From a virus (Duplodnaviria; Heunggongvirae; Uroviricota; Caudoviricetes), in IMG/VR virus record IMGVR_UViG_2778261693_000004, positions 1-16,397 of that record: DNA of 16,397 bases; one strand, written 5' to 3'. Made by a program: the position numbers and the translations under genes. Numbering within the stretch: position 1 is the first letter of the stretch; each line of letters begins with the position of its first letter. Positions 1 through 16,397 of this stretch are shown in pieces. The notes under the pieces are model-generated. The model was not told where the DNA came from. It ran no database searches and was given only the letters and a program-made list of their open reading frames with translations.

Positions 1-1
1 G

Positions 2-166
2 GCATCCAACGCCATTCATGGCCATATCAATGATTTTCTGGTGCGTACCGGGTTGAGAAGCGGTGTAAGTGAACTGCAGTTGCCATGTTTTACGGCAGTG
101 AGAGCAGAGATAGCGCTGATGTCCGGCGGTGCTTTTGCCGTTACGCACCACCCCGTCAGTAGCTGA
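2..166 (+). CDS. 3' end of a plus-strand CDS running off the left edge; by P1 synteny possibly the C-terminus of the type III restriction subunit Res
   Basis: Frame 2 is open from the window edge to TGA at 164-166 (…[31 protein letters not shown]). It converges on the mat-position gene as res does in P1. I do not recognise the residues themselves. Confidence 0.3.
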
Positions 167-501
167 ACAGGAGGGACAGCTGATAGAAACAGAAGCCACT
201 GGAGCACCTCAAAAACACCATCATACACTAAATCAGTAAGTTGGCAGCATCACCAGCCTCATTTTGATGTCATTATTAGCAATTTAAAAAAGTTATGTCC
301 GAATATCATCGCTGAAGGCGTCGAAAACATTGATTGTCATAAGTTATCAAAAGGGATAGGGCTATGGGGCACTCAGGGATATTTTTTCCCATCAATTCCG
401 CTGACGGAGATTGAGTCCATAGATAGTAAGTGGCTATCAGATTTATGAGATGCAGAGAGTTAGGATATTGATATGAACATCTAAGCACCTCATTACTGTG
501 C

Positions 502-954
502 TTAAAAGATGTTATCCTTACCTGTTAATTTACCTTGAGGAACTTTAGTGAGCTCCATCCGATAAAATGCTTTTATCATATTTACAAATGGCTCATATGG
601 TGAATATTCGTTGTCTTGTTTAGTAACGGTGTCTGTCATTGTCCTGATGTAGTCTGCGCTTACCACGTTGTTGTTTGCTTCAATTAGTACCGGCCTGCCG
701 TTCATGAAGGGATCACGCAACCTTACACGCTGGCCAACTCGACCGGTAATAAAGCTGTTTTCCTCTTCCACCAGCACGATAAAACCCTTTTCCTCTTTTT
801 CTCGCAATTCGCGCAGCAGCTGGAGTTCCATATCGCGGCGGCGTTCAGGGTAGCTGGTCCGCTCAGCCATTATCAGCTCATTGTTGATCCATGCAGCAGT
901 CATTGACGCCGGTTTGCCGACGCTCATTGAAACAACGCATATTTTCTTATCCAT
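502..954 (-). CDS. Hypothetical protein at the position P1 gives to mat (between ref and res)
   Basis: ORF 502-981; I place the start at the internal ATG 952-954 (MDKKICVV…), which has an AGGGG Shine-Dalgarno 5 nt upstream. Assignment is by synteny only. Confidence 0.5.
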   Translation of the reverse strand: MDKKICVVSMSVGKPASMTAAWINNELIMAERTSYPERRRDMELQLLRELREKEEKGFIVLVEEENSFITGRVGQRVRLRDPFMNGRPVLIEANNNVVSADYIRTMTDTVTKQDNEYSPYEPFVNMIKAFYRMELTKVPQGKLTGKDNIF

Positions 955-1142
955 AGCGCCCCTACAAAAAAGAAAAGCCACCAGCGGCGGCTTAGCAATA
1001 CAACTGAAGGTAGCGCCCGGTACTCAGACTGTGCCGTCCATGGAATATTTGAAAGGGGATCCATCCGTACCGGGCATGTGATGATTCTGACTGAAGTCAC
1101 TTGTCAGTTGTCAATCATTTATCATTAAAAATAATATATTTA

Positions 1143-1703
1143 TTAGTGCATGATGTTTGCCATCTCATAGGCGTCAGCCAGTAACTCCATCTCTGACTTG
1201 TTCAGCAGGGTGAATTCTTTCTTGCCTCCAACCACACCATCGGCATGAACAGGGACCAGCCAGGGGTATTTTGCTCTTACTTCAGCCGGAGCTGCATGCT
1301 GGTGGTGCCATCTACAAAGAGGCAATTGCTTTTTATGACAACCCGGCGCGGTACGACCGGCGATATGGTGCAGAGACATCTCATTAGATATTACTCCATG
1401 CATATAGCAGGCAATGCAGGGGAGAGTGCCAAGAGCATTGGCGATGCGCCGTTCCTCCGCCGTTGGTGTTCTCCCCTTCAAGCCACGAGATTTTATTTTT
1501 ACCGCGCTTTTCCGCGTTTTGCTGGCTGGTAGGCGCTCTTTCTGTTTAGCGATACGGCGGTCGAGAGTATCCCGCATTTTCTGATATTGAGATTCTCGCC
1601 AGACCGGATCAGCCAACTTCTCCCGTTGCCGAGCGATCGCTCGTTCTCTGGCTGCCTTCTGCCACTTGCGGCACTGTTCAATTTTTTGTTCGATTGTTTT
1701 CAT
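1143..1703 (-). CDS. ref: Ref, HNH-family endonuclease that stimulates RecA-dependent recombination
   Basis: 186 aa, matching P1 Ref length. Cys/His HNH-like cluster (CIACYMHGV…HHIAGRTAPGCHKKQLPLCRWHH). C1 operator and TATAAT upstream; position after cra as in P1. Confidence 0.75.
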   Translation of the reverse strand: MKTIEQKIEQCRKWQKAARERAIARQREKLADPVWRESQYQKMRDTLDRRIAKQKERLPASKTRKSAVKIKSRGLKGRTPTAEERRIANALGTLPCIACYMHGVISNEMSLHHIAGRTAPGCHKKQLPLCRWHHQHAAPAEVRAKYPWLVPVHADGVVGGKKEFTLLNKSEMELLADAYEMANIMH

Positions 1704-1708
1704 ATGGC

Positions 1709-1736
1709 AAAAAAAAAAGGCGGCCTAATGGCCGCC
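1709..1736 (-). terminator. Intrinsic-terminator-like hairpin plus U10 on the minus strand, ending 5 nt before the ref ATG
   Basis: GGCGGCC-TAAT-GGCCGCC (1719-1736) with an A10 run at 1709-1718 on the plus strand, which is U10 after the hairpin on the minus-strand RNA. Confidence 0.5.
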
Positions 1737-1803
1737 AATGATGTCAAGGAGTGAAGTAATGGCAACGTCTTCGTAGTTGACAAAAACTGCGGCTCAATTA
1801 TAG

Positions 1804-1820
1804 CGATCTATTAGAGCAAT
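1804..1820 (-). promoter_or_regulatory. C1 repressor operator (Op2-like) in the ref promoter
   Basis: cgatctATTAGAGCAAT on the plus strand matches the reverse complement of ATTGCTCTAATAAATTT at 13/17. A perfect TATAAT lies on the minus strand at 1797-1802. Confidence 0.65.
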
Positions 1821-1926
1821 GATAGATATTTTGTTTATCGCTAATCACATTTTTTCACTTCAGTACCTGTGTGCTATACTCCTTCTTGATTGATTGGATG
1901 CGGAATACAAACCCGCTCTTTTGTGC

Positions 1927-1954
1927 AGCCTGGCTCCTTGCCAGGCTTTTTTTT
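1927..1954 (+). terminator. Plus-strand rho-independent terminator with no annotated plus-strand gene upstream
   Basis: AGCCTGGC-tcctt-GCCAGGCT hairpin followed by T8 (1947-1954). Candidate extended -10 (TGcTATACT, about 1873-1881) lies 50 nt upstream on the same strand. Confidence 0.45.
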
Positions 1955-2264
1955 ATTTCATCATGGAAGTTGTTAACGCTTTGGACCTTGCTGAACTGAT
2001 TGAGAGGGCTTTGTCAACGTGCCCCAAAAATTCGCCAAACTCAGACATCACTTTAGCAAAACCGCGCCGTGCTTCTTCCTCGGTGGCATTCATCACGAAA
2101 TGTTCAGCACCACGCATACTTTTGACAGGGAACGCAACGGATATTGAATCAATATCAGGCATTCTATCGCTCAGCTTTACAGTGACAATGACGGCTGGCG
2201 ACTGAATATTAGTGCTTACAGACAGCACTACATATTTTCCGTCGATGTTGAAATCCTTTCTCAT
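1953..2264 (-). CDS. cra: Cra (cre-associated) small protein
   Basis: 103-aa ORF with GGTGA Shine-Dalgarno 3 nt before the ATG. Its offset from cre/loxP matches where I recall P1 cra. The equal-length mirror ORF on the plus strand has no Shine-Dalgarno. Confidence 0.5.
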   Translation of the reverse strand: MRKDFNIDGKYVVLSVSTNIQSPAVIVTVKLSDRMPDIDSISVAFPVKSMRGAEHFVMNATEEEARRGFAKVMSEFGEFLGHVDKALSISSARSKALTTSMMK

Positions 2265-2280
2265 ATGTCACCATAAATAT

Positions 2281-2297
2281 CAAAGAATTAGAGCAAT
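2281..2297 (-). promoter_or_regulatory. C1 operator-like site between cre and cra
   Basis: caaagaATTAGAGCAAT, 13/17 to the reverse-complement consensus. Confidence 0.4.
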
Positions 2298-2314
2298 CAT
2301 TTACGCGTTAATGG

Positions 2315-3346
2315 CTAATCGCCATCTTCCAGAAGGCGCACCATTGCCCCTGTTTCACTATCCAGGTTACGGATATAGTTCATGACAATATTTACGTTGG
2401 TCCAGCCACCAGCTTGCATGATCTCCGGTATTGAAACTCCGGCACGGGCCATATCTCGCGCGGCTCCGACACGGGCACTGTGTCCAGACCAGGCCAGGTA
2501 CCTCTGGCCAGAGTCATCCTTAGCCCCGTAAATCAATCGGTGAGTTGCTTCAAAAATCCCTTCCAGGGCGCGAGTTGATAGCTGGCTGGTGGGTGATGGC
2601 GAGGCAACACCATTTTTTCTGACCCGGCAAAACAAGTAGTTATTCGGATCATCAGCCACACCAGAGACAGAAATCCATCGTTCGACCAGTTTAGTTACCC
2701 CCAGGCTAAGTGCCTTCTCTACACCCGCGGTACTAACCAGAGTTTTCGTTCTGCCAATATGGATTAGCATTCTCCCACCGTCTGTACGTGAGATATCTTT
2801 AACCCTGATCCTGGCAATTTCGGCTATACGTAACAGGGTGTTATAAGCGATCCCCAGAAATGCCAGATTACGTATATCCTGGCAGCGATCGCTATTTTCC
2901 ATGAGTGAACGAACCTGGTCGAAATCAGTGCGTTCGAACGCCAATGCCTGTTTTGCACGTTCACCGGCATCAACGTTTTCTTTTCGAATCCGCCGCATGA
3001 CCAGTGAAACAGCATTGCTGTCACTTGGTCGTGGCAGCCCGGACCGACGATGAAGCATGTTTAGCTGGCCCAAATGTTGCTGGATAGTTTTTACTGCCAG
3101 ACCGCGCGCCTGAAGATATAGAAGATAATCGCGAACATCTTCAGGTTCTGCGGGAAACCACTTCCGGTTATTCAACTTGCACCATGCCGCCCACGACCGG
3201 CAAACGGACAGAAGCATTTTCCAGGTATGCTCAGAAAACGCCTGGCGATCCCTGAACATGTCCATCAGGTTCTTGCGAACCTCATCACTCGTTGCATCGA
3301 CCGGTAATGCAGGCAAATTTTGGTGTACGGTCAGTAAATTGGACAT
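2315..3346 (-). CDS. cre: Cre site-specific tyrosine recombinase
   Basis: 343-aa translation (MSNLLTVHQNLPALPVDATSDEVRKNLMDMFRDRQAFSEHTWK…MVRLLEDGD) is recognisable along its full length as P1 Cre. loxP lies about 420 bp upstream. Confidence 0.97.
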   Translation of the reverse strand: MSNLLTVHQNLPALPVDATSDEVRKNLMDMFRDRQAFSEHTWKMLLSVCRSWAAWCKLNNRKWFPAEPEDVRDYLLYLQARGLAVKTIQQHLGQLNMLHRRSGLPRPSDSNAVSLVMRRIRKENVDAGERAKQALAFERTDFDQVRSLMENSDRCQDIRNLAFLGIAYNTLLRIAEIARIRVKDISRTDGGRMLIHIGRTKTLVSTAGVEKALSLGVTKLVERWISVSGVADDPNNYLFCRVRKNGVASPSPTSQLSTRALEGIFEATHRLIYGAKDDSGQRYLAWSGHSARVGAARDMARAGVSIPEIMQAGGWTNVNIVMNYIRNLDSETGAMVRLLEDGD

Positions 3347-3353
3347 TTAACAC

Positions 3354-3575
3354 TCAGACAATAGTTTTAAGTAAAGTGTACAGGATTGGCTCTGCCTTTA
3401 CCTGTTTATGGTTCTCGTCATAGAAACGCCAGCGACCGCGCGTGCGTTCTATTTTCTCTTCACCGCGCGATAATGACAGTTGGCAACTATCACGATCAAA
3501 CCCTTTTGCCCGCCAGTAACCACGGTTTTTCTCAAGCTCAAGATGAGTGGACACTTTAGCAGCTGAATATCCCAT
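3354..3575 (-). CDS. Small ORF (73 aa) immediately upstream of cre and translationally coupled to it
   Basis: ATG at 3573-3575 preceded by GAGGTG 4-5 nt upstream. Stop lies 7 nt before the cre ATG. Basic protein (MGYSAAKVSTHLELEKNRGYWRAKGFDRD…). Confidence 0.35.
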   Translation of the reverse strand: MGYSAAKVSTHLELEKNRGYWRAKGFDRDSCQLSLSRGEEKIERTRGRWRFYDENHKQVKAEPILYTLLKTIV

Positions 3576-3671
3576 TTTTCACCTCTGATTGATTGGTGGT
3601 GCTAAGTGCGCTACGCGAAATCTGGAGCACTAACACTGCCAACATTTCGCAGATTTTACGTAGCGCAACCT

Positions 3672-3693
3672 TGATCAAATGATCAAGTGATCA
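3672..3693. promoter_or_regulatory. Cluster of three TGATCA (Dam GATC) sites in the cre upstream region
   Basis: TGATCA at 3672-3677, 3680-3685 and 3688-3693, with a fourth at 3741-3746. Consistent with the reported Dam-sensitive cre promoter region. Confidence 0.5.
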
Positions 3694-3764
3694 CTATTTG
3701 ACCTGATAAGGTATTGAACTGTATGGATTTACAGGTAAATTGATCATGTTCAATAACCCTTAAG

Positions 3765-3798
3765 ATAACTTCGTATAATGTATGCTATACGAAGTTAT
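3765..3798 (+). other. loxP: loxP recombination site
   Basis: Exact ATAACTTCGTATA-ATGTATGC-TATACGAAGTTAT. Confidence 0.98.
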
Positions 3799-3841
3799 CA
3801 GGTCCGAAGAGGAGTTTACGTCCAGCTGCGCACAAAAATCA

Positions 3842-3858
3842 AGAATTATTAGAGCAAT
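3842..3858 (-). promoter_or_regulatory. C1 operator (Op99-like) upstream of coi
   Basis: agaattATTAGAGCAAT, 15/17 to the reverse-complement consensus. Confidence 0.7.
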
Positions 3859-3924
3859 AAATTTTGAGAGAAAAATCCCACTCCACCAGCTAAAAACTGG
3901 ATTGTTTTTCATAGTTGTTTGACA

Positions 3925-3941
3925 ATTGCTCTAATAAATTA
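3925..3941 (+). promoter_or_regulatory. C1 operator (Op99-like) upstream of coi, opposite orientation to the previous site
   Basis: ATTGCTCTAATAAATTa, 16/17 to consensus. Confidence 0.75.
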
Positions 3942-4179
3942 TAGTTTTGCCGCCGTTACGTAATACGACTTTGGATTCACTATTTAATGTGTCTTCAGCG
4001 TTGTAGAGCGGCTCAGAAGGAAATGAGCAAACAGGGAAACCTTATACAACGGCATTACAGCTATGCATTGCTCATCTTACACACAGCGCAATGTTGTTAG
4101 ATTACCCCAGCATGGATCATGGGTGAAACAGTAGGTCAGAGCTTCAGGCTCTGTGTTGTCAATACAGTGAGGCATAATT

Positions 4180-4389
4180 ATGGCTTTCATTCAACCAACC
4201 ATCGACGACGTTAGACATTGCTCTAACGCTTTATCTGTAGACCCTGCCGAAACCGACGCTGCCCGCACCATTGCTGAACACTACTCAAAGATATCCAATC
4301 AGGACTACCGCATCACCCAAGACGACCTGGATGACCTCACTGACACAATCGAATATCTCATGGCAACTAACCAGTTAGCCTCACAATAA
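4180..4389 (+). CDS. coi: Coi, C1 inactivator
   Basis: 69 aa, the length I recall for P1 Coi. Sits directly upstream of c1 with flanking C1 operators. GAGG Shine-Dalgarno. Confidence 0.75.
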   Translation: MAFIQPTIDDVRHCSNALSVDPAETDAARTIAEHYSKISNQDYRITQDDLDDLTDTIEYLMATNQLASQ

Positions 4390-4405
4390 ATGCACTAATA
4401 AATCT
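4389..4405 (+). promoter_or_regulatory. C1 operator-like site between coi and c1
   Basis: aATGCaCTAATAAATcT, 14/17 to consensus. Confidence 0.5.
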
Positions 4406-4499
4406 ATTATTTTTGTTTGATCCCTCTATAATATAGGTCAGTAATGACCGGTTTTCTCAGCCGGGCGTTATTGACCATGTCAATTCTGGAGGAGGATCA

Positions 4500-5351
4500 A
4501 TGATAAATTATGTCTACGGCGAACAACTGTACCAGGAGTTCGTCAGCTTCAGGGATCTCTTTCTAAAAAAAGCTGTTGCACGCGCCCAACACGTTGATGC
4601 CGCCAGCGACGGTCGTCCTGTTCGCCCGGTTGTCGTTCTGCCGTTCAAAGAAACGGACAGCATTCAGGCTGAAATTGATAAATGGACTTTAATGGCGCGG
4701 GAACTGGAACAGTACCCAGACCTCAATATCCCAAAGACTATTTTATATCCAGTGCCTAACATCCTTCGCGGTGTACGTAAGGTTACAACTTATCAGACAG
4801 AAGCTGTGAACAGCGTCAACATGACCGCTGGCCGCATTATTCATCTGATTGATAAGGATATTCGCATCCAAAAAAGCGCGGGGTTCAATGAGCACAGTGC
4901 GAAATACATAGAGAACCTGGAAGCAACAAAAGAGCTAATGAAGCAGTACCCGGAGGATGAAAAATTCCGTATGCGCGTACACGGCTTTAGCGAAACAATG
5001 CTGCGCGTCCACTACATTTCCAGTAGCCCTAACTACAATGATGGTAAATCAGTTAGTTACCATGTGCCACTGTGTGGCGTGTTTATCTGCGATGAAACCC
5101 TCCGTGATGGAATCATCATCAACGGTGAATTCGAGAAAGCAAAATTTAGCCTTTATGACTCCATAGAACCGATCATCTGCGACCGCTGGCCGCAGGCAAA
5201 AATATATCGCCTGGCAGATATTGAAAATGTAAAAAAACAAATTGCCATCACTCGCGAAGAGAAAAAGGTCAAATCAGCCGCATCAGTTACGCGCAGTCGT
5301 AAAACTAAGAAGGGGCAGCCAGTAAACGACAACCCCGAAAGCGCGCAATAA
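4500..5351 (+). CDS. c1: C1 prophage repressor
   Basis: 283 aa, the length I recall for P1 C1. GGAGGAGG Shine-Dalgarno. Follows coi, about 0.7 kb from loxP. Window carries nine copies of its operator motif. Confidence 0.85.
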   Translation: MINYVYGEQLYQEFVSFRDLFLKKAVARAQHVDAASDGRPVRPVVVLPFKETDSIQAEIDKWTLMARELEQYPDLNIPKTILYPVPNILRGVRKVTTYQTEAVNSVNMTAGRIIHLIDKDIRIQKSAGFNEHSAKYIENLEATKELMKQYPEDEKFRMRVHGFSETMLRVHYISSSPNYNDGKSVSYHVPLCGVFICDETLRDGIIINGEFEKAKFSLYDSIEPIICDRWPQAKIYRLADIENVKKQIAITREEKKVKSAASVTRSRKTKKGQPVNDNPESAQ

Positions 5352-5354
5352 ATT

Positions 5355-5376
5355 ATGCCCGGCATCAACCGGGCAT
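5355..5376. terminator. Hairpin between convergent c1 and antirepressor genes, possible bidirectional terminator
   Basis: ATGCCCGG-catcaa-CCGGGCAT, 8-bp stem, with A/T-rich flanks. Confidence 0.4.
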
Positions 5377-5383
5377 TCTTCCA

Positions 5384-6529
5384 TTATTCAGCCGCCACCG
5401 GTTTTAACAAGCCAGCATCGAGCAGTTTACGCGTCAACCACTGTTGTCCTTTCCCCGTTAATTGGGGCGTCAGCCGTATCTGGTAGCCATCTTCATCATC
5501 CAGCACCACTTCTTTCACTGTGAAATATCCGGCGTTTATGTACTGCTGGAACGGCACATTTTTACGCCCGCCGGACGCTATCAGAATGCCGTTCTCCCGT
5601 AACCAGGCAAACAGCGCGTTTTGCTTCAGCCCAACAACCTTTGCAAAATTACCAATCAGGATCCCCTTAGCCACTGATACACGGTCGGCAAAATCGACCT
5701 TGGGGGCTGCGGCCACCAGTTGTTGATTTAGCTGGTGGGCCTTCTGTTCCAGTAGCTGCTTTTGTTCAGCCAGCTCGGCAGCCAGGCGCAAGGCTTCAGG
5801 TAGTGTTTGGGGGATTGCGACCGGTTGCTGTTCTTTTTGCCGGAAGTAGCTGTCTTCCAGTTTTTCAAAGAATGCCCATGCTTCATCTGTGTTTACGATC
5901 TTAGACATGCGTGCCGCTCCGCGTTCGGCCCAAAGAATTACCTGGCTTGTATATTTGCTAACCAGGTGACTAGTAGTCACCAGCCTTTTAAATTCCTTTA
6001 ATTTTTAACCAGTTAAGAGATAGTAATGCTTACCTTCTTCAAAGCGATCGGAGTTGCGAGACAAATTTTTACGAATATTAGCTTCATCGGTTCCATACCC
6101 CTTAGCAAGAGTTTCGGTCGTTACTACACGCACTCCCAGCCATTCCAGAACGGGAATTTCATCAGACTGATTCTGAACAACCACCAGCTCTGATTCCTGA
6201 ACTGAAGTTGCATGAATTTTTTCTGATTTAACGTTAGTTGCTTTCATTCTGTGTGCCTCCTTGCGTGCTTCGGCTGCGACGGTTGCGTAATTCAGATGAC
6301 CCTGTTCGAGCAGGTATTCACGGATATCGGTCACAGCGATAGCCTTTAAGCGCAGATAAACATCGCGCTTATCGACATCCAGATGCGGGTATTCCTTTTC
6401 AAGAATTGCTGCGAGTTCTTTCGCTGATAGAAGAGATTTAGTGCGGATCATGTAATCCGCAATCTCGTACGATGTTATTCGTGAGTGATTTATTTCCATG
6501 AAGTGGCGTCCCTGCCAGTTAAGTAACAT
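5384..6529 (-). pseudogene. Antirepressor-like gene (ORF6N/Rha-type N-terminal domain plus KilA-C/ANT C-terminal domain) split by an in-frame TAA at 6005-6007
   Basis: ORFs 6005-6529 and 5384-5980 are in the same frame. The upstream ORF stops mid-domain (…SDRFEEGKHYYLLTG*) and the domain continues after the stop (KLKEFKRLVTTSHLV…TDEAWAFFEKLEDSYF). The downstream part carries a KilA-C-like motif (GNFAKVVGLKQNALFAWLRENGIL…PFQQYINAGYF) and begins only at a GTG. Confidence 0.6.
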
Positions 6530-6599
6530 CCTGTCACCTACTGATTAGCCCATGTCAACTAATCAACGTCGAATATAATACCATCGATTAAAGAAATAG

Positions 6600-6616
6600 C
6601 AATACATTAGAGCAAT
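6600..6616 (-). promoter_or_regulatory. C1 operator-like site upstream of the antirepressor-like gene
   Basis: caatacATTAGAGCAAT, 14/17 to the reverse-complement consensus, 71 bp upstream of the ATG at 6529. Confidence 0.55.
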
Positions 6617-6617
6617 T

Positions 6618-7664
6618 TTATCTAACGCTCGACGAATGACTTGTGATAGCGCCGACTCCAAGCGCGTAATCAAAGAACAATCGTTGATGCATCGCCAGCC
6701 TACCGTGCGTCTTCTCCCAATTATCGCGGTCACGCTCAATATCACGCTGGCATGACTGGCACAGAGGAATAGCATAAATGTCATGCGCGCATAATCGACT
6801 ATAACGAACGATATAAGGCGTAATGTGAGCGCCAGCTCCCGCCGCTCCACACCCACAGCATGGACGGGAAGCAACAAAGTCCATGTACTCAGGTAATTTT
6901 AGCGATTGCAGTTTTGGTATTTTGAAATGCGCCATACCTGGGTCGGAGTCAACATCCACAGGGCATACTTTTGCACGCATCGGCGCGGCGCGTTCTTCCA
7001 TCATCTGAACATATGCTGTAGCGCGATCGTCATACGGGCGAATATCCGCCTCTTTCAGTGGTCCGCTATCCTGCGGAGTAGCCTTCATCTTATTTATTAT
7101 TGATATGCGGCAGACTTCTTCCGGCATCAGGTGCATCATGTTGCGCATGAAAGCCCACCAGCACAGCTCCTGAATACTTAAATCATGGCTATTTGAAAGG
7201 CCCATTTCCTGACGGGCGACATCCAGTATCCAGTTAACGCGATTATTGTGCAGCGTTTCTTTCAGCTCATTAAAACCACGCATCCGGTAATGGTTATCGT
7301 GATGCCAGCACAACAACACCGCGCTATTGTCTCGTTCAGCGTGGACAATATGGTTGTCACACCAACTACGATCTGCGGCCTGGCATTGACCCTCTTTCCT
7401 ACGCAACCACGCCACCAGCGCGTCAATTCCACCAATACGGCGAAACAGTTCATCGCTGTTAAAAAACGGCTGCAACGCCTCATTTGTTGCCATGGTTTGC
7501 TCGGTAACAACGAGGCCGTCTTCCATGTGCTCGATTAACTCACGCGGCACCGGCTCCATAATAAATTTACGGCCAGCCTCCACCAGCTTTCTGACCTCCT
7601 GATCCACTTTGAACGTGGCGAGGCCAAGCTCTTTCTGTACAAAGGGAGTAATTACGGCTTTCAC
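6618..7664 (-). CDS. Hypothetical 348-aa protein with a C-terminal Cys/His cluster resembling the Ref HNH-like motif
   Basis: GTG start with AAGGTG Shine-Dalgarno 4 nt upstream. C-terminus …[42 protein letters not shown]. At the position I recall for P1 pdcB, but I do not recognise the sequence. Confidence 0.6.
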
Positions 7665-7691
7665 ATCACACCTTTAATCACTGATTGGGCT

Positions 7692-7871
7692 TTATCTGCT
7701 GCCCGACATTATCTGTTTAAGCACAACCATTTCCTGACGGCATAACACAGCAATAGCGGTCCTGGCACCAATTTGCTTACTAACCAGGTATTGCTTTATC
7801 TTGCGGCGACTCACGCCATCAAGAAGCATCTTTAACGCTTCACGGGACAATTTGTTGTATTTGCGTGCCAT
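7692..7871 (-). CDS. Small basic protein (59 aa) immediately downstream of doc
   Basis: ATG at 7869-7871, 4 nt after the doc stop (MARKYNKLSREALKMLLDGVSRRKIKQYL…). At the position I recall for P1 pdcA. Confidence 0.45.
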   Translation of the reverse strand: MARKYNKLSREALKMLLDGVSRRKIKQYLVSKQIGARTAIAVLCRQEMVVLKQIMSGSR

Positions 7872-7875
7872 TAAT

Positions 7876-8256
7876 CTACTCCGCAGAACCATACAATCTA
7901 CGTAACGTGGCGGCGACAGAAGATACAGATATCTCGCCAGTCGCAGCGCCTACAGTAAGGTCTGCCAGTTCAGGTGAATCAAATACCTGCACCCCATTAC
8001 GGCGTAGAAATAGCAGCGCACTGTTTAGCGCGGTACGCTTATTGGCATCATTGAATATATGCCCTCTCGCTGTAGCCACCAGGTAGGTGGCGGAGACTTC
8101 GAAAAGGTCGGTGATCTCTTCGTAGGCAACTCTGGCCTGAACTCTCCCGATAATGGCCTCTGCCCTACCCGGATCTGACATTCCCGGCAGGCCGCCGTAG
8201 CGGTTTATATTCGCATCATGAAGCGCAATAAGTTCTTCCGGTGATATATGCCTCAT
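7876..8256 (-). CDS. doc: Doc toxin (Fic-fold kinase) of the phd-doc addiction module
   Basis: 126 aa ([22 protein letters not shown]…[23 protein letters not shown]…), recognised as P1 Doc. Its start overlaps the phd stop. Confidence 0.95.
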
Positions 8257-8477
8257 TATCGGTTAACCAGTTCCTTGTTGGTGGAGTCCAGGGTGTCAAA
8301 CAGGGATGCAAATTCAGCATCCAGCGCCGCTTTTTTGTAGGCTTCGAAAGTAGCCTTGCTGACAATTACTGCTGGCTCACGGCCTCTGCGGGTGATTTCA
8401 ACCTCTTCCCCGGCTTCAACATTGTTGAGCACTTCAGAAAGGTTGCCGCGCGCGGTACGGAAGTTAATGGATTGCAT
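8256..8477 (-). CDS. phd: Phd antitoxin
   Basis: 73 aa from the ATG at 8475-8477 ([49 protein letters not shown]…), recognised as P1 Phd. GAGGTG Shine-Dalgarno. Confidence 0.93.
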
Positions 8478-8484
8478 AAACACC

Positions 8485-8510
8485 TCGTGTACTCGTTATG
8501 TGTACACAAT
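8485..8510. promoter_or_regulatory. Phd/Doc autoregulatory operator with palindromic GTGTACAC sites
   Basis: Perfect palindrome GTGTACAC at 8501-8508 and a one-mismatch copy at 8487-8494, between a -10-like TATAAT on the minus strand and the phd Shine-Dalgarno. Confidence 0.55.
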
Positions 8511-8549
8511 TATAAACTTCACAGGCATAAAGCACCAGCACTTTGCAGC

Positions 8550-8939
8550 TTAAATCACCGGACAATCATCAAATTCCCCACTTCGGGCATCATTAATGAC
8601 ATGAGTGATCACACCAAACACAGCATTACTCCCCGTGCATCCATCGTCATCCACTGGTAACGCCTCTTTCTTCCCGGTGCTTAAATCCTCCAGGTGCTGG
8701 CGCGGATACTTTCGGTATCTCTTTATGCGATATTCACCCTCCATAGCGCACACAAGCAGCGAACCATCAACTGGAGTAAGCGAAGAATCAACCACCAGCA
8801 AAGCACCCTGCAATATTCCCTCACGGTGATGGCTATCAGCTGCCCGCATGAAGTAGGTTGCTGATGGATGTCTAATTATCTGCTGATCAAGAGAAATTCG
8901 GCTTTCAACATAATCCGCCGCAGGAGAAGGGAAACCCAT
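8550..8939 (-). CDS. humD: HumD, UmuD'-like SOS mutagenesis protein
   Basis: 129 aa starting [30 protein letters not shown]…, which aligns with the processed form of E. coli UmuD ([30 protein letters not shown]…); C-terminal [12 protein letters not shown] matches FGVVIHVVKAMR. Confidence 0.9.
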   Translation of the reverse strand: [129 protein letters not shown]

Positions 8940-8958
8940 AGCGTTTTACCTCAAAAAT

Positions 8959-8974
8959 ACTGTTTATCTATACA
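8959..8974. promoter_or_regulatory. LexA box (CTGT-N8-ACAG) in the humD promoter
   Basis: taCTGTttatctatACAGca, about 20 bp upstream of the humD Shine-Dalgarno and ATG, overlapping a plausible TTGCAC/TAATGT promoter on the minus strand. Confidence 0.65.
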
Positions 8975-9113
8975 GCATACATTAAAGAAGCACCTTTGGT
9001 GCAAACGCGTTATGTACATCAACCACCGCTGATGATTTTTGTGCGCTTTGCTACTATTCATCACCGCGGGATCAGCGTAACCTCGTTGCCAATCAGTTAA
9101 TAAGGAATTAGCT

Positions 9114-9698
9114 ATGCCTAATCGCATTCCTCTCGATCCTGTATTGCCCAAAAATTTTGACTGCACTCCTAACGAGAAACGCTCTAAAGCTCAGCTGGAC
9201 GCCTAGTGGGACCATCCATATGGGGTTACACAACCTGACGGGAAAATTGTAGTTTATTGTCTGAATGGTGGGGCGTGGGACCGTCCATCCATGCTTTGTT
9301 TGGCAGATAACTATGATGAAGCCTGTGAACTTGCCGAAAGACAGCAGGCAAGCTGGGTAAAAACACGGTCTGAACCGACATTCATGTTTTCAAAAGAACC
9401 GCCATTTATACTGGCGAGGATGCCGCAGCGACCGGATCATCAACAAGAAATTGTTGCTGAATTTTCCTCAAGGGATGAGATGAATCTCTTCTCATTAAAG
9501 CAGGAAGAAAGGGATCGCGTCGAAGTGTCTCCAACTCTCGACCACAACCGGATGAACCTGGCCCAGCTCGCCTGGTACAGCAAAGAATTAGAGATGTCTA
9601 TTGCCCGGCTTGAAAACGAAAAAGCCGCTATCCAAGTCCAGCACGAAGTAGTTCTGAACCGGATTAGAGAAATGCAAAACGATAACAGGGGATTTTGA
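9114..9698 (+). CDS. Hypothetical protein; reading frame from a well-positioned ATG is interrupted by an in-frame TAG at 9204-9206 (uninterrupted ORF starts at 9291)
   Basis: AAGGAA Shine-Dalgarno 8 nt before the ATG at 9114. Frame is open for 30 codons, then TAG, then continuously to 9698. The ATGs at 9291 and 9314 have no Shine-Dalgarno. The stop abuts the next gene's ATG. Confidence 0.45.
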
Positions 9699-10055
9699 AT
9701 GGCTAAAATCGAGTACCATCGCGATCGCGGTAATTACCTGGAAATATACGATCATGAATCTCTTAACGATATCAACGATGCGTTATATGAATACTGTGAA
9801 AAAACGAGCATCACAGATGCACCTGATGCATTTGTCGAGCTGCCGGTATATCTCCGCGACATCTATGCAATACGAACACCGCCCGTATCGGTGATTCACA
9901 TTGGCTATGTCCGCCTGTCCATCGAAGAAGATGAAGATCGTTATATCGTGCGCCACTATACATTGGACAGAAAAGAACTTCCTAATGAATGGAACATGAG
10001 TAATTTCTACAACGGTGAATATGGCTTAAAATCCGCTAATAATTTACGGTCATAA
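9699..10055 (+). CDS. Hypothetical 118-aa protein, translationally coupled to the upstream gene
   Basis: ATG at 9699 directly follows TGA at 9696-9698. AGGGGA Shine-Dalgarno. Sequence not recognised. Confidence 0.55.
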   Translation: MAKIEYHRDRGNYLEIYDHESLNDINDALYEYCEKTSITDAPDAFVELPVYLRDIYAIRTPPVSVIHIGYVRLSIEEDEDRYIVRHYTLDRKELPNEWNMSNFYNGEYGLKSANNLRS

Positions 10056-10900
10056 TCTATACAGGCATGTATAACAACAACGAGCCTATTAGCTGTCAAC
10101 AACGTTATTTCCTCAAATAAGAAAAAGCAGAAAACAAATTGTTTAAGGTCACAAATTGTGGCCTTGATGGAGGAGGGAGGCTTATTGGCTATGGCTAAAA
10201 ATCAAATTAGACACTTCATGTTGCTGTAGCTCATCAAGATCCGAGGCCACAAAACCTTTTCCGAAAAACTTCACAAGTAACTCACTAGCCGCATCATTGT
10301 CACCTATTACACGAAAGTCATACGGCAACGTCGCAAGTTGACGATGTAATCCTGCTGAGAAAGTCGAATCTAACAGCGCCCAGAATTCCCACCGCAGGAT
10401 AATACTCGCCTCTTAATACTGTATATATGTTGTTACGATATGTTTTTCTGTCTCTAAAAAAAGATGTTTGAAGGGGATAAAAATATACAATTCCAACAAA
10501 CGTTATTTTTAACAATTTTTTTCTTTGCGTTGACTTTCCCGGACACCTTGTCTGACCTAAGGTGCGCGAAAGCCACTTTTTCCTTCCTGAGTTATCCACA
10601 AAGTTATGCACTTGCAAGAGGGCCATTTTCTACATATTGTGGTGGCTAACAGATGAAATGAATGTAGATTAATTGAAGATAAGGAGAAAATTTGAGATGC
10701 AATCATGACGTTAATAGATAGGGTCTGCATTACAGACCCCACCCGCATCAAGGAATTAGCCGTTCCCTGATGTTTTTCCGAAAACATGTGCCGTAAGCTC
10801 ACGTTAACGACTTTCATTCACCGAATCCAACTATATAGGGGTTGGGTTTCTACGTCAACGTGAGCAAGTGCACCTTTACATTTGACAAGGAACCACCTGA

Positions 10901-11038
10901 ATGAACGCTTTTTTTCAGTTCCTGAGTGCATTTTTAGATGCGCCTATTATTAGCCAGATTCTGGCTATTATCCTCATCATCGTTTTGATTTTGCTTTTAA
11001 GGTCAGTAAAAAATGGAATTATGCACTGGCTTACTTAA
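10901..11038 (+). CDS. Small hydrophobic peptide (45 aa), single predicted transmembrane helix
   Basis: MNAFFQFLSAFLDAPIISQILAIILIIVLILLLRSVKNGIMHWLT with AAGGAA 8 nt upstream. Sits in an otherwise ORF-poor AT-rich region. Confidence 0.3.
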   Translation: MNAFFQFLSAFLDAPIISQILAIILIIVLILLLRSVKNGIMHWLT

Positions 11039-11113
11039 TGTTTCAGTGAAACATTAAAATCTCCTTGATGTGGAAACAATCATTTTCTGTATGTGCTGGT
11101 GGGCACCTGTAGT

Positions 11114-11476
11114 TCAGCTTTCGTTGGCATTTAACTTCGTCTTTGCTTTCTCCACCAGCAACTTCCAGATGCCTATTTCATTAGCAGCCGCCTTGATGGC
11201 GGCATAAAAAGCATCTTGCTGATCGTAACGCTGGATCTGTTTTTTCAGTTTTGCCTCCACCAATTTAATTTCATTACGTGCTTTCTGAAGCCGCATCACC
11301 GCCCGGTTACGTCTGTTCTTGTATAGCGTGTTAATCTCTGACAATTGCTTTAATTTACCAGCCTGACTGCGGATTATCGCCTCCCTGGCTTCTGCCGTGC
11401 GTCTCATCTGATCTCTTAAGAGTTCACCGTTTTCGATAATTCTTTCAAGGTGTTTGATGTGATCTGCAACTCTCAT
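11114..11476 (-). CDS. Hypothetical 120-aa basic, probably coiled-coil protein; last gene of a five- or six-gene minus-strand operon
   Basis: Start overlaps the stop of the upstream 293-aa gene. Lys/Arg/Glu-rich heptad-like sequence. Confidence 0.6.
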   Translation of the reverse strand: MRVADHIKHLERIIENGELLRDQMRRTAEAREAIIRSQAGKLKQLSEINTLYKNRRNRAVMRLQKARNEIKLVEAKLKKQIQRYDQQDAFYAAIKAAANEIGIWKLLVEKAKTKLNANES

Positions 11477-12354
11477 ACTTCACCCTCGCTTGTATCACCA
11501 GCGTCCACCAACGACAATAAAGCCCTGGCCATCTTATGAACCAACAGTGCATCAATAATGCCAAGCGTATGCCCCGGCTTAATGTTTAATGCTGCCTCAA
11601 GATGACACCTTTCCAGACCGCTTTTCTCGGCTTGTTTATGATGATATGGCGTAATAACGTCGCCCAAAACACGGCTAATTCTTTCTCGTAATTGCTGGGT
11701 GCCAGCACACTTGATCGCTGTATCGTGGAGACGGTTAACCAGTTCGCGATAAACATGCGGCTTAATGCGGATACGTTCACCGGTGACGCCCTTTCCTGGC
11801 GTAGGCACCGAACTATCCGGAATATCCGGATAGTTGCCAGCCAGTCTACGCAAAACAGCCTTAATTGCATCAATACGGTCATCATCAACTTTTTCTACAA
11901 TATTGGAATTTAAATACTTCGAAGCCTTGCTATGCCAATCGCTGGTTTTAGGGTCTTGTCCATCCATCAAACGCCAAGCTTCAGCGATTAACTCATAGCC
12001 AGTAACAGTGGCTTCCTGCGCATCACCAATCAGTTGTGTGATCTCTCTTTCAAGCATGCTTAGAGCGTTAGGCATTGGTTTTTCTTCCGGTACTACTGGA
12101 ACGGGGGGAGCGGCGTAGACCTCAATAATTCCATTATCAATAGGCCATTCTCCATCCTTGAGGTAGTCACTTGTGCCGTCAACTTGCTGTTCTGCAATGT
12201 GGAATGCACCTATTGGTTTTGCTTCCAGTGATGCCAGAGCAATTCGTGCCAGTTCTTCCGCTTCTTCTGCTGGCAGTACAACGTTGCTACCAGGTCCGTA
12301 TGTTTCGCGCCACTGCTTGATTGTCAGTAGTCGCTCTTTGGTAATAGTGGTCAT
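11473..12354 (-). CDS. Hypothetical 293-aa protein
   Basis: Long ORF overlapping both neighbours by 4 nt (operon coupling). Sequence not recognised. Confidence 0.65.
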   Translation of the reverse strand: MTTITKERLLTIKQWRETYGPGSNVVLPAEEAEELARIALASLEAKPIGAFHIAEQQVDGTSDYLKDGEWPIDNGIIEVYAAPPVPVVPEEKPMPNALSMLEREITQLIGDAQEATVTGYELIAEAWRLMDGQDPKTSDWHSKASKYLNSNIVEKVDDDRIDAIKAVLRRLAGNYPDIPDSSVPTPGKGVTGERIRIKPHVYRELVNRLHDTAIKCAGTQQLRERISRVLGDVITPYHHKQAEKSGLERCHLEAALNIKPGHTLGIIDALLVHKMARALLSLVDAGDTSEGEV

Positions 12355-12866
12355 GCCGCGTTTCCTTCTTTCTTATTAACAATTACACCGTCATATATTT
12401 CATTAAGGTGCCCTCTCAACTCCATGCGCCTTAATGCAGATAACATGTAATCGCATTCAACCTGCTTATTTCCAGTAAATGGCTTATCGTCAGGATTACC
12501 CCAACAGCAATTACCCTTGGGCCACCCATGTACTTTCCGTACTCTTCCGTTAACAACGTGAAGTAATCCCCAGCCAGGTGGTAAATCCTCAATTGAAATA
12601 ATTCCCGGCTCACTAATAAAGAATCGCCAGTCGCCCATTCCAAGAGACGGATTTTTACGAAAACGCTTTTTTCTATCTGCCAACAAGTCAGCACGAGAAC
12701 ACTTCGCCTCTATCAGGCATGATGCTGAATTTCTGAATCCCATAGCATCTGGCTGTTCTCCGGTACTGGTTACAGCTATAAAGCGGTCATGAAAACAAAC
12801 CTTGAACCCGTTGCGCTTAAGGAACTTGTACGCAATCTGACAGAGTTCGCGGTGTGTTAACGCCAT
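12351..12866 (-). CDS. Putative PD-(D/E)xK-fold nuclease (MmcB-like)
   Basis: 171 aa with a D…E-x-K signature (…GEQPDAMGFRNSASCLIEAKCSRADLLAD…). ATG overlaps the stop of the upstream PP-loop ORF. Confidence 0.55.
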   Translation of the reverse strand: MALTHRELCQIAYKFLKRNGFKVCFHDRFIAVTSTGEQPDAMGFRNSASCLIEAKCSRADLLADRKKRFRKNPSLGMGDWRFFISEPGIISIEDLPPGWGLLHVVNGRVRKVHGWPKGNCCWGNPDDKPFTGNKQVECDYMLSALRRMELRGHLNEIYDGVIVNKKEGNAA

Positions 12867-12867
12867 A

Positions 12868-13234
12868 TCACTCTCCTTTGATGCGAATGCCAGCGTCAGA
12901 CATCATATGCAGATACTCAACTGCATCCTGAACCCATTGACCGCCAATCCCGTAATAGCGATGCGTAATGATGTCGATAGTTACTAACGGGTCTTGTTCG
13001 ATTAACTTCCGCAGAAACTCTTCCAGGTCACCAGTGCAGTGCTTGATGACAGGAGTTTTCCCAGGATGGCGAACAACAAGAAACTGATTTCCGACTTCAC
13101 GGACTTCGTTGCTTTCCAGTTCTGCTATCCATAAAAATGAAATGGACGCTAACGCCAGCTTTTCGCTGTGCTTCCATCAGATGAACGAGATAAGCCGATG
13201 TTCGTCCACCTGAAAAGCTGACGACTTGATGCAT
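12868..13234 (-). pseudogene. PP-loop (SGGxxS) ATP-pyrophosphatase-like gene, apparently frameshifted
   Basis: ATG at 13232-13234 gives MHQVVSFSGGRTSAYLVHLMEAQRKAGVSVHFIFMDSRTGKQRSP*. A second frame overlapping it by about 80 nt continues to 12868 (…NQFLVVRHPGKTPVIKHCTGDLEEFLRKLIEQDPLVTIDII…). The switch lies near a T5 run / GGAAAG around 13100-13135. Confidence 0.45.
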
Positions 13235-13243
13235 ACTCACGGT

Positions 13244-13822
13244 TTATTCCTGAATGCGCTTAAACTCGATTACCCATACCAACGGGTTAGATAGCCAGTT
13301 ATCCTGCCCGTAAATACTGCGCCAGATATCACCAAAACCAACGCGATAAACAGCTTCAGATGGCGTAATCTTGTACGTCGCCGGAGTTGCGCCTTCTGCT
13401 TTAGCATCTTCCTCGCTCATGTCATGCAGCCGTTCCACACGCACGTCGGTAATTTCCAAAAGAATGCGCGATGCCCAGCGCGGCATGTGAATTGATGGCG
13501 TCCACTTTTCTGATACTGGTTTATTACAAACCTCGACCGGAACCCGGTGCGTTTGTTCTGTCCAGGAGTTACGCACGCTTGCGCGATAAACCAGCGTTGC
13601 GACGTCCGTCGCTTTGCCATGTACCCGGTAGGTTTCGCGAACCCAAATACGATCGCCCGGTTGACCATATGGACAATGCTTGGCAAGCAACTCTGCGGCC
13701 ACTGCCCGTCCATAGAATTTTTCTTCAACAATCCTGCGAGTCTGTGTTTTATTCCCGCCAAGAATTGCCCGGACCATCTCATCGTTAAAAATCATGCCGC
13801 GCTCTTTCACTTCGCCTTTCAT
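13244..13822 (-). CDS. ASCH-domain-like protein
   Basis: 192 aa. N-terminal MIFNDEMVRAILGGNKTQTRR fits the ASCH G-x-K-x-x-T-x-R signature. GGGGG Shine-Dalgarno. Confidence 0.6.
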   Translation of the reverse strand: MKGEVKERGMIFNDEMVRAILGGNKTQTRRIVEEKFYGRAVAAELLAKHCPYGQPGDRIWVRETYRVHGKATDVATLVYRASVRNSWTEQTHRVPVEVCNKPVSEKWTPSIHMPRWASRILLEITDVRVERLHDMSEEDAKAEGATPATYKITPSEAVYRVGFGDIWRSIYGQDNWLSNPLVWVIEFKRIQE

Positions 13823-13831
13823 GCATCCCCC

Positions 13832-13918
13832 TTACCCATGTGCGACGATGCCGCCAAAAGTGATAGAGAACAGCCAGAAATAGATCGCGGCCATAATGAT
13901 TTTGAATGCCGTGTTCAT
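13832..13918 (-). CDS. Small hydrophobic peptide (28 aa), first ORF of the operon
   Basis: MNTAFKIIMAAIYFWLFSITFGGIVAHG with AGGAG 9 nt upstream. Its stop lies 9 nt before the ASCH gene's ATG. Confidence 0.3.
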   Translation of the reverse strand: MNTAFKIIMAAIYFWLFSITFGGIVAHG

Positions 13919-13945
13919 ATTTTCAGCTCCTGTGATTGATTGGAT

Positions 13946-13977
13946 ACATGCCGCGCCTTGCGGCATGTTTTTATTTT
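13946..13977 (+). terminator. Plus-strand rho-independent terminator in the leader of a minus-strand operon
   Basis: ACATGCCGC-gcctt-GCGGCATGT (9-bp GC-rich stem) followed by TTTTTATTTT. No plus-strand gene upstream. Confidence 0.45.
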
Positions 13978-13991
13978 CACTTTCTCTGTTT

Positions 13992-14008
13992 TAAAAATCA
14001 TTATTTAT
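13992..14008 (-). promoter_or_regulatory. C1 operator in front of the ASCH/PP-loop/nuclease operon
   Basis: ttATTTATTAGAGCAAT, 15/17 to the reverse-complement consensus. Confidence 0.7.
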
Positions 14009-14016
14009 TAGAGCAA

Positions 14017-14523
14017 TTATTGTTGATGGAGAAGCGCGTTTTCATACTCCCTGACCATTAACGTAAGCACGCCGTGCCTCCTGAAAACACGCGCCACTTC
14101 AATCTTATCTTCCAGCGCGAACGCAATTTTGCTTAGACCAATTTTCTTAAGGAGATCAATCTTTGCTGGACCGTCATTTCTGTCATCGGTGGCGGGACGC
14201 ATAGATAGCAAAGGCTCTGCCCCATTTGTTACGTGCTTACGCAACCAGGCTCGTGTTTTATCCCTGGCTATCTCACAGCGCCCGGTTACAAACCAGAGCG
14301 TGTAAATGCTGGACAACTGGCGCACCATATCAATAACTGGAGTGATGGAAGCATCAGTGTCACAGGCAAGGTTAAACTCGTTCCAGTGCTCTGTTAATGC
14401 ACCGTTGCCAGGCGGTGGAAGTAAATGCAGCCTGTCTTCCGTTGCCTCCGATATCGTTCCATCAATATCTACTATGACAATGTACGGACGTTCCTGGTGT
14501 GCGTGTTTATTGAAAATACTCAA
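14017..14523 (-). CDS. HAD-superfamily phosphatase (polynucleotide 3'-phosphatase-like DxDGT motif)
   Basis: 168 aa with motif I VIVDIDGTIS. TTG start with GAGGAGG Shine-Dalgarno 4 nt upstream. Confidence 0.7.
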   Translation of the reverse strand: MSIFNKHAHQERPYIVIVDIDGTISEATEDRLHLLPPPGNGALTEHWNEFNLACDTDASITPVIDMVRQLSSIYTLWFVTGRCEIARDKTRAWLRKHVTNGAEPLLSMRPATDDRNDGPAKIDLLKKIGLSKIAFALEDKIEVARVFRRHGVLTLMVREYENALLHQQ

Positions 14524-16270: not shown

Positions 16271-16397
16271 TGATCTTACCCAGCAATAGTGGACACGCGG
16301 CTAAGTGAGTAAACTCTCAGTCAGAGGTGACTCACATGACAAAAACAGTATCAACCAGTAAAAAACCCCGTAAACAGCATTCGCCTGAATTTCGCAG
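16271..16397 (+). mobile_element. Left end of an IS3-family insertion sequence (IS3-like), running off the window
   Basis: Terminal TGATCTTACCCAGCAATAGTGGACACGCGG… followed by an orfA start, both of which I recognise as the IS3 left end. Confidence 0.75.
16336..16397 (+). CDS. IS3-family transposase OrfA, N-terminal fragment
   Basis: ATG at 16336 with GAGGTG Shine-Dalgarno; translation MTKTVSTSKKPRKQHSPEFR…. Confidence 0.75.
   Translation, partial: MTKTVSTSKKPRKQHSPEFR

Follow-up and report, generated by a model that had tools for sequence, protein, structure and literature searches.

The window, by which we mean the whole 16,397-nucleotide stretch of DNA analysed here, holds a P1-derived block bordered by the ends of two insertion sequences and oriented in reverse to the P1 reference (NC_005856) (Table 1). 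By megablast it is about 97% identical to P1, P7 and SJ46 over most of its length, and likewise to many Escherichia coli plasmids. The C1 repressor and its operators (8 operator matches in the window vs 0.1 expected), the cre-loxP system and the phd-doc pair are all present, with c1, coi, cre, loxP, phd and doc intact, and the products of pdcA, doc and phd, the addiction module, match their P1 counterparts over their full lengths at 93-100% identity. The intact loxP shows that the plasmid-maintenance part of P1 has been preserved.

Table 1. Features of the window, with positions counted from its first letter.
Feature	Position	Strand	Remarks
IS1 end	1-254		one border of the P1-derived block
cre	2315-3346	-	
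cra	3354-3575	-	
loxP	3765-3798	-	intact, exact 34/34 match; 0 expected by chance
coi	4180-4389	+	
c1, primary P1 repressor	4500-5351	+	283 aa, intact; 96-99% identical to P1 c1
Terminator-like hairpin	5355-5376		GC-rich, 9 pairs (6 G-C), between the convergent c1 and ant frames
ant-derived part	5384-6328	-	ant codons 57-370; ORF6N and KilAC domains
198-aa ORF	5384-5980	-	KilAC antirepressor domain (Pfam)
Premature TAA	6005-6007	-	TCA->TAA at chimera codon 175; splits the frame into 174-aa and 198-aa ORFs
174-aa ORF	6005-6529	-	BPP1_LPA, then first half of ORF6N (Pfam)
Deletion junction	6329-6333		GGTCA in the window; AGACA in both the ant and lpa parents
lpa remnant	6334-6529	-	first 66 codons, joined in frame to ant sequence
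Plpa promoter and C1 operator Olpa	6575-6616	-	retained ahead of the chimera; correspond to P1-annotated Plpa/Olpa
pdcB	6618-7664	-	348 aa, intact; Pfam DUF968, E=1e-48; full-length, 98% identical to P1 PdcB
pdcA	7692-7892	-	intact (ORF list)
doc	7876-8256	-	intact (ORF list)
phd	8256-8483	-	intact (ORF list)
IS3 end	16271-16397		other border of the P1-derived block

Between c1 and pdcB the window departs from P1. Read in the orientation of the window, the P1 reference carries c1(+), pacB(-), pacA(-), lpa(-), pdcB(-), pdcA(-), doc(-) and phd(-), the gene order given in the preliminary description of this DNA (doc-pdcA-pdcB-lpa-pacA-pacB-c1), and its annotation places pac inside pacA and also marks LPpac, Plpa and Olpa. 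The c1-pdcB gap is 3,328 bp in P1 vs 1,266 bp in the window (5352-6617); the 2.3-kb interval given earlier (5352-7664) included pdcB itself. In blastn comparisons, positions 3782-5350 align to P1 as far as the c1 stop codon and positions 6332-9681 align from a point within lpa onward, such that 981 bp of the window (5351-6331) occupy the place of 3,043 bp in P1. The earlier statement that this interval holds no ORF for a terminase subunit is borne out by tblastn searches with P1 PacA and PacB, neither of which has a match anywhere in the window at E<1e-3. The same is true of its remark on the packaging site: there are no TGATC[AG] hexamers in 5352-7664, as opposed to 7 within 154 bp in the P1 pac site inside pacA, and the densest cluster in the window comprises 4 (3672-3741), adjoining loxP/cre. 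Lpa is likewise not present at full length in the window, where only residues 1-66 remain. Conversely, P1, P7 and SJ46 have no ant gene beside c1. The P1 order given earlier is correct, and the reference does not carry the same antirepressor gene at this site.

The gap is filled by the remains of a single composite gene. Its ant-derived part (Pfam ANT/KilAC, E=1e-31, plus ORF6N) matches the ant gene beside c1 in plasmid NZ_CP055201 at 95% DNA identity, and its lpa part matches P1 lpa at 98% DNA identity from position 6332 on. The 174-aa ORF matches positions 1-60 of the 131-position BPP1_LPA family at residues 15-74, and in tblastn the P1 Lpa protein matches the window over residues 1-77, reaching 11 residues past the junction. 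The 174-aa and 198-aa ORFs share one reading frame, and the TAA that separates them falls in, and splits, the ORF6N domain. In the plasmid pMTY9803_untypable1 (CP135674) the same 1,146 bp form one 381-codon ORF, annotated 'phage antirepressor Ant', whose sole difference from the window is TCA vs TAA; the unbroken protein consists of Lpa 1-66, one junction residue and Ant 57-370. PGAP labels the copy in a second plasmid, pMRE162, a pseudogene that has an internal stop and lacks its N-terminus. The 174-aa and 198-aa ORFs are pseudogene pieces of one lpa'-'ant chimera, and annotating them as two genes is inadvisable. The preliminary description was correct that antirepressor sequence lies here, but what it took for the sole gene of the interval is a chimera broken by a stop codon. 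Upstream, an Olpa operator match (6600-6616) overlaps a promoter-like site (6602-6575), and downstream the predicted hairpin is probably a bidirectional terminator common to c1 and the chimera. Absent from the window are an ant start codon of its own, the upstream icd gene and the C4 RNA control found in immI, and no RNA family was found when the window was searched against Rfam with gathering thresholds.

The origin of this composite becomes apparent from relatives in which nothing is missing. An arrangement of c1, ant-icd-C4, pacB, pacA, lpa and pdcB is common among P1-like plasmids, and its full form was confirmed in phage RCS47 (FO818745), NZ_CP055201 and NZ_CP027590. In NZ_CP055201, Rfam places two RNAs upstream of icd, a C4 antisense RNA and one resembling isrK, so that this segment amounts to a second immunity-I-like module. 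The window equals the NZ_CP055201 arrangement minus locus positions 7130-10872 (3,743 bp), and of the two possibilities raised earlier, module replacement or deletion, it is the deletion that fits. Plasmids and phages of the RCS47/NZ_CP055201/NZ_CP027590 type are our best model of the ancestor, and the 370-aa Ant (P0004) that is the likely parent of the chimera is encoded on 108 contigs. We placed the junction by three-way alignments of the window with ant and lpa of RCS47, NZ_CP055201, NZ_CP027590 and P1. As read from these, it is microhomology-mediated over 5 bp, with the pentamer in the window differing at two bases from both model parents.

We consider it about 90% probable that positions 5352-6617 are what a single deletion of about 3.7 kb, made by illegitimate recombination, left behind in a P1-like plasmid prophage. 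In the sequence of events that we infer, the ancestor would have carried, in order, c1, the C4 RNA-icd-ant module, pacB, pacA (including pac and LPpac), lpa and pdcB. A single deletion of 3,743 bp, reaching from codon 56 of ant to codon 67 of lpa, would have taken out the C4 RNA and icd, codons 1-56 of ant, pacB, pacA together with pac and LPpac, and the 84 C-terminal codons of lpa (67-150). It would have left lpa(1-66) fused in frame with ant(57-370) under the C1-repressed Plpa, and the change from TCA to TAA that truncated the chimera in the lineage of the window would have come afterward. A one-step replacement, in which a foreign antirepressor cassette displaced lpa'-pacA-pacB in a P1-type ancestor with no ant at this site, would account for the apparent substitution seen when the window is set against P1 alone, and for the lack of ant beside c1 in P1, P7 and SJ46. 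We regard such an exchange as very improbable: a query running from the 3' end of c1 into ant is matched over more than 80% of its length by at least 121 PLSDB plasmids and by the phages RCS47 and JL22; in RCS47, NZ_CP055201 and NZ_CP027590, ant is followed by undamaged pacB, pacA and lpa genes; and the window copy of ant is without codons 1-56, icd and the C4 RNA, which is what deletion from a pre-existing module predicts. The converse route, by which the ant-pacB arrangement would have arisen from the window type by insertion, is also unlikely because in P1, P7, SJ46 and over 550 further plasmids the c1-lpa site is occupied by pacAB.

The junction is a real and stably inherited allele. NCBI assemblies and sequencing runs contain the 174-aa truncated chimera, with both junction and nonsense codon, on 35 contigs (44 data blocks in all), and pMRE162 carries it as well. 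The junction is also found in four complete long-read plasmids, which together with the 35 independent contigs rules out an assembly artefact. Strain MRE162 was isolated in 1949 (PMC10652920), and because its plasmid carries both the deletion and the stop codon, these are at least as old as that year. Decay elsewhere on the element went on after the deletion, since some contigs with the nonsense allele keep a full-length 2,255-aa DarB and pMRE162 has a truncated one. The genome announcement for MRE162 contains neither 'phage' nor 'prophage' in its text, and pMRE162 is therefore not described there as P1-derived (PMC10652920).

These allele counts bear on whether the chimera might be a gene in its own right. 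The in-frame fusion of lpa(1-66) to ant(57-370), the retention of Plpa and Olpa ahead of it, and the survival of an intact 381-aa version (P0006) in CP135674 and on 4 other contigs would all be expected if selection had produced a new antirepressor under direct C1 control, acting as a feedback switch, instead of a neutral scar. Yet the nonsense allele is about nine times commoner than the intact one (35 contigs vs 4), an in-frame outcome has a chance of 1/3, and five other deletions of the region yield no such fusion. Nor does the Lpa N-terminus bear detectable similarity to the Ant N-terminus that it replaced. Homology between these two ends was considered as a cause of the in-frame fusion and rejected: Pfam finds no BPP1_LPA domain in full-length Ant, and in blastp of Lpa against three Ant proteins the best match is out of register with E=0.39. 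We therefore hold a selected new gene to be most unlikely and continue to favor a neutral deletion scar.

What became of the rest of the phage is best judged from the closest complete relatives, pMRE162 (CP119405, 76.9 kb) and pMTY9803_untypable1 (61 kb). In megablast searches of PLSDB and the RefSeq complete E. coli genomes no entry matches the window over its full length, and pMRE162 is the best match, at 99.96% identity and 88-89% coverage. This identity extends over window positions 255-12862, with the same junction and the same stop codon; pMRE162 differs by lacking positions 12863-14451 (a 1.6-kb indel) and by having IS1 at another position. The junction in pMTY9803_untypable1 is identical, its chimera being free of the stop codon. 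Searched over their whole lengths by tblastn, neither plasmid encodes PacA or PacB, and both have only the N-terminal half of Lpa; the largest hexamer cluster in pMRE162, as in the window, numbers 4 vs 7 in P1. When 79 P1 proteins were searched for, 22 had full-length counterparts in pMRE162 and 51 had no match there at 60% or greater identity; 51 of the 79 are absent from both plasmids. Among the missing functions are the portal, protease, lysozyme, holins, tail fibers, baseplate, tube, darA operon, repL, ban and dmt. In their stead, IS elements, an autotransporter and a cellulose synthase operon are found on both plasmids, with metabolic genes in addition on pMRE162. A RepB-family initiator and ParA/ParB, encoded in a region beyond the window, are annotated on pMRE162, pMTY9803_untypable1 and a further plasmid, pPSJ-07_1, and the initiator and partition proteins of the sister plasmids differ in type from those of P1.

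In P1, the PacA and PacB proteins together cut at pac to start headful packaging, and Lpa is the activator of all late promoters. With PacA, PacB and Lpa all gone, an element of this kind would, on the basis of P1 biology, have no late transcription and no specific packaging: DNA cutting, packaging and the switching on of late genes would each fail. The element would persist as a plasmid only, by way of c1/coi immunity, cre-loxP dimer resolution and phd-doc addiction, all of them functions necessary or useful to a plasmid. The preliminary description had proposed that packaging is lost unless the terminase lies elsewhere, a view supported by the two complete plasmids with the same junction. 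It had been right that pacAB and pac are gone but understated the damage, which extends to the destruction of lpa and, in the sister plasmids, to many other phage genes.

A working phage could still be imagined, its pacA, pacB, lpa and pac having been relocated on the replicon or being provided from the chromosome or by another P1-like element in the same cell, given that the window shows no more than 16.4 kb of the source replicon and that P1-like genomes are mosaic. For the sister plasmids this is largely refuted by the absences just listed, which take in not only terminase and most of Lpa but also structural, lysis and replication genes (portal to dmt). A helper phage, moreover, would be unable to recognize the plasmid because there is no pac site, and pacAB is missing altogether from about 100 of the 702 PLSDB plasmids that carry this c1. 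For the element in the window we accordingly assign functional phage status a very small probability. As judged from the two sister plasmids with its junction, the element is a grounded P1 remnant and not a phage with a relocated terminase, and its gene content points to the loss of phage function. It should not be called a phage, nor should transduction by it be expected. The presence of the same junction in a 1949 strain and in recent sequencing runs indicates that remnants with c1, cre-lox and phd-doc can persist for decades.

The lineage of the window is one of several to have lost its terminase at this site. Among the 702 c1-carrying plasmids in PLSDB, 601 have some pacAB match, and in 81 PLSDB plasmids c1 and pdcB-phd lie within about 2.2 kb of each other. 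Six different breakpoint pairs were mapped, and at least five other P1-like plasmids have lost pacAB by deletions unlike that of the window. Given as NZ_CP055201 locus positions, the deleted segments are 7130-10872 in the window lineage, 7219-10692 in pSF10EC-2, 7502-10887 in pHI1B-o111, 6483-8577 and 8652-10909 in pPSJ-07_1, 8220-11063 in pTetA_020022 and 6329-10930 in pEF-3. All right-hand ends fall within the 453-bp lpa gene (10618-11070), all left-hand ends lie between the c1 stop codon and the pacB 3' end, and c1 and pdcB-doc-phd are untouched by all six deletions. Some of these could be nested secondary events. Plasmids with a 643-bp gap (the pPSJ-07_1 type) were considered as secondary derivatives of the window deletion and rejected as such, since they keep a 74-bp island of pacB that is absent in the window and lack ant sequence that the window keeps; pPSJ-07_1 has the same decayed backbone as pMRE162 with an independent junction. 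The shared termination in lpa suggests that joint removal of Lpa and the terminase was favored. Whether this amounts to selection to kill Lpa-dependent, lethal late expression while immunity and addiction were kept, as opposed to random decay, is a tentative proposal to which we give somewhat less than even odds. Independent deletions ending in lpa nonetheless provide a small hint as to which losses are favored when a phage-plasmid changes into a plasmid.

Compared with Punavirus P1 (NC_005856), the window keeps the gene order, with cra, cre, loxP, coi and c1, as well as pdcB, pdcA, doc, phd and humD, 96-99% identical, but lacks pacB, pacA, the pac site, LPpac and lpa codons 67-150 and has a truncated ant paralogue adjoining c1. 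That paralogue resembles P1 Ant1/Ant2 of immI in its ORF6N plus KilAC architecture, with 51% protein identity to Ant1 and, across the KilAC part, a DNA identity of about 85%; unlike them it adjoins immC instead of lying in immI, lacks a start, icd and C4 control, and is joined to an Lpa fragment and broken by a stop codon. Phage RCS47, NZ_CP055201 and NZ_CP027590 share its c1-ant junction and ant allele family at 87-95% DNA identity, whereas the C4 RNA, icd, full-length ant, pacB, pacA and lpa that they keep all fall within or across the 3,743 bp missing from the window. In the defective P1-derived plasmids pMRE162 and pMTY9803_untypable1, the functions of plasmid life and immunity survive, and most genes for the virion, lysis and lytic replication are gone. 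P1-like phage-plasmids are known to become plasmids through gene loss (Pfeifer and Rocha 2024, PMC10879196). With its close P1 homologues and missing key phage functions, the window is another P1-derived plasmid of this gene-loss kind, and the event recorded in it is ordinary phage-plasmid decay, a conversion already described in that work (PMC10879196).

At the lpa-ant deletion junction, window positions 6329-6333 read GGTCA, while both model parents (ant and lpa of the intact relatives) carry AGACA. The two substitutions are located precisely at the junction microhomology, and they convert a Ser codon common to both parents into Thr. The GGTCA sequence may have originated from another parent allele or from error-prone joining. 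Elsewhere among P1-like plasmids of PLSDB, the independent pacAB deletions that were mapped relative to the intact comparator L009 (those of L006, L024, L025, L026 and L027) all have an endpoint in the lpa interior and leave c1 and pdcB untouched; across the database, these two genes almost adjoin in 81 of the ~702 c1-carrying plasmids. Many P1-like plasmids also possess two mutually inverted C4 RNA-icd-ant modules that are 84-93% identical and, as in L009 and a further locus, L010, flank the c8-cre-loxP-coi-c1 segment, an arrangement of inverted repeats that could permit inversion or exchange of the immC/cre block. The four-site TGATC[AG] cluster near loxP does not represent a pac site.

Features of the window and of the intact comparator
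Feature	Sequence	Coordinates	Remark
IS1 end	window	1-254	left boundary of P1-derived block
TGATC[AG] cluster, 4 sites	window	3672-3741	between cra and loxP; densest in window
1.6-kb segment with pap and adjacent ORFs	window	12863-14451	compared with pMRE162 and pMTY9803_untypable1
IS3 end	window	16271-16397	right boundary of P1-derived block
C4 RNA-icd-ant modules	L009 (NZ_CP055201)	926-2513 and 6185-7760	inverted pair; pair also in L010

The 1.6-kb pap segment is retained in the window and in pMTY9803_untypable1 but deleted from pMRE162, and the source of the window is therefore a sister of pMRE162 rather than pMRE162 itself. An EAL-domain gene is intact in pMRE162, whereas in the window, as judged from the coordinate offset between the two, its 5' end appears to have been removed by the IS1. 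Cargo common to the P1-derived plasmids pMRE162, pMTY9803_untypable1 and pPSJ-07_1 comprises the genes bcsA, bcsB and bcsC of a cellulose synthase operon, together with a large autotransporter and a toxin-antitoxin pair (RelE/Phd); hokD is present in both pMRE162 and pPSJ-07_1, and the latter has additionally acquired a multi-resistance region (qnrB19, sul2, aadA5, dfrA17, tet(A), floR).

Two window segments, 9682-10492 and 11843-13730, do not align to P1, which carries in their place, respectively, a 306-bp stretch containing hot and a 608-bp stretch that we take to lie within pmgT/pmgU. SJ46 aligns across the first of these segments but only partially across the second, and both look like ordinary mosaic variation.
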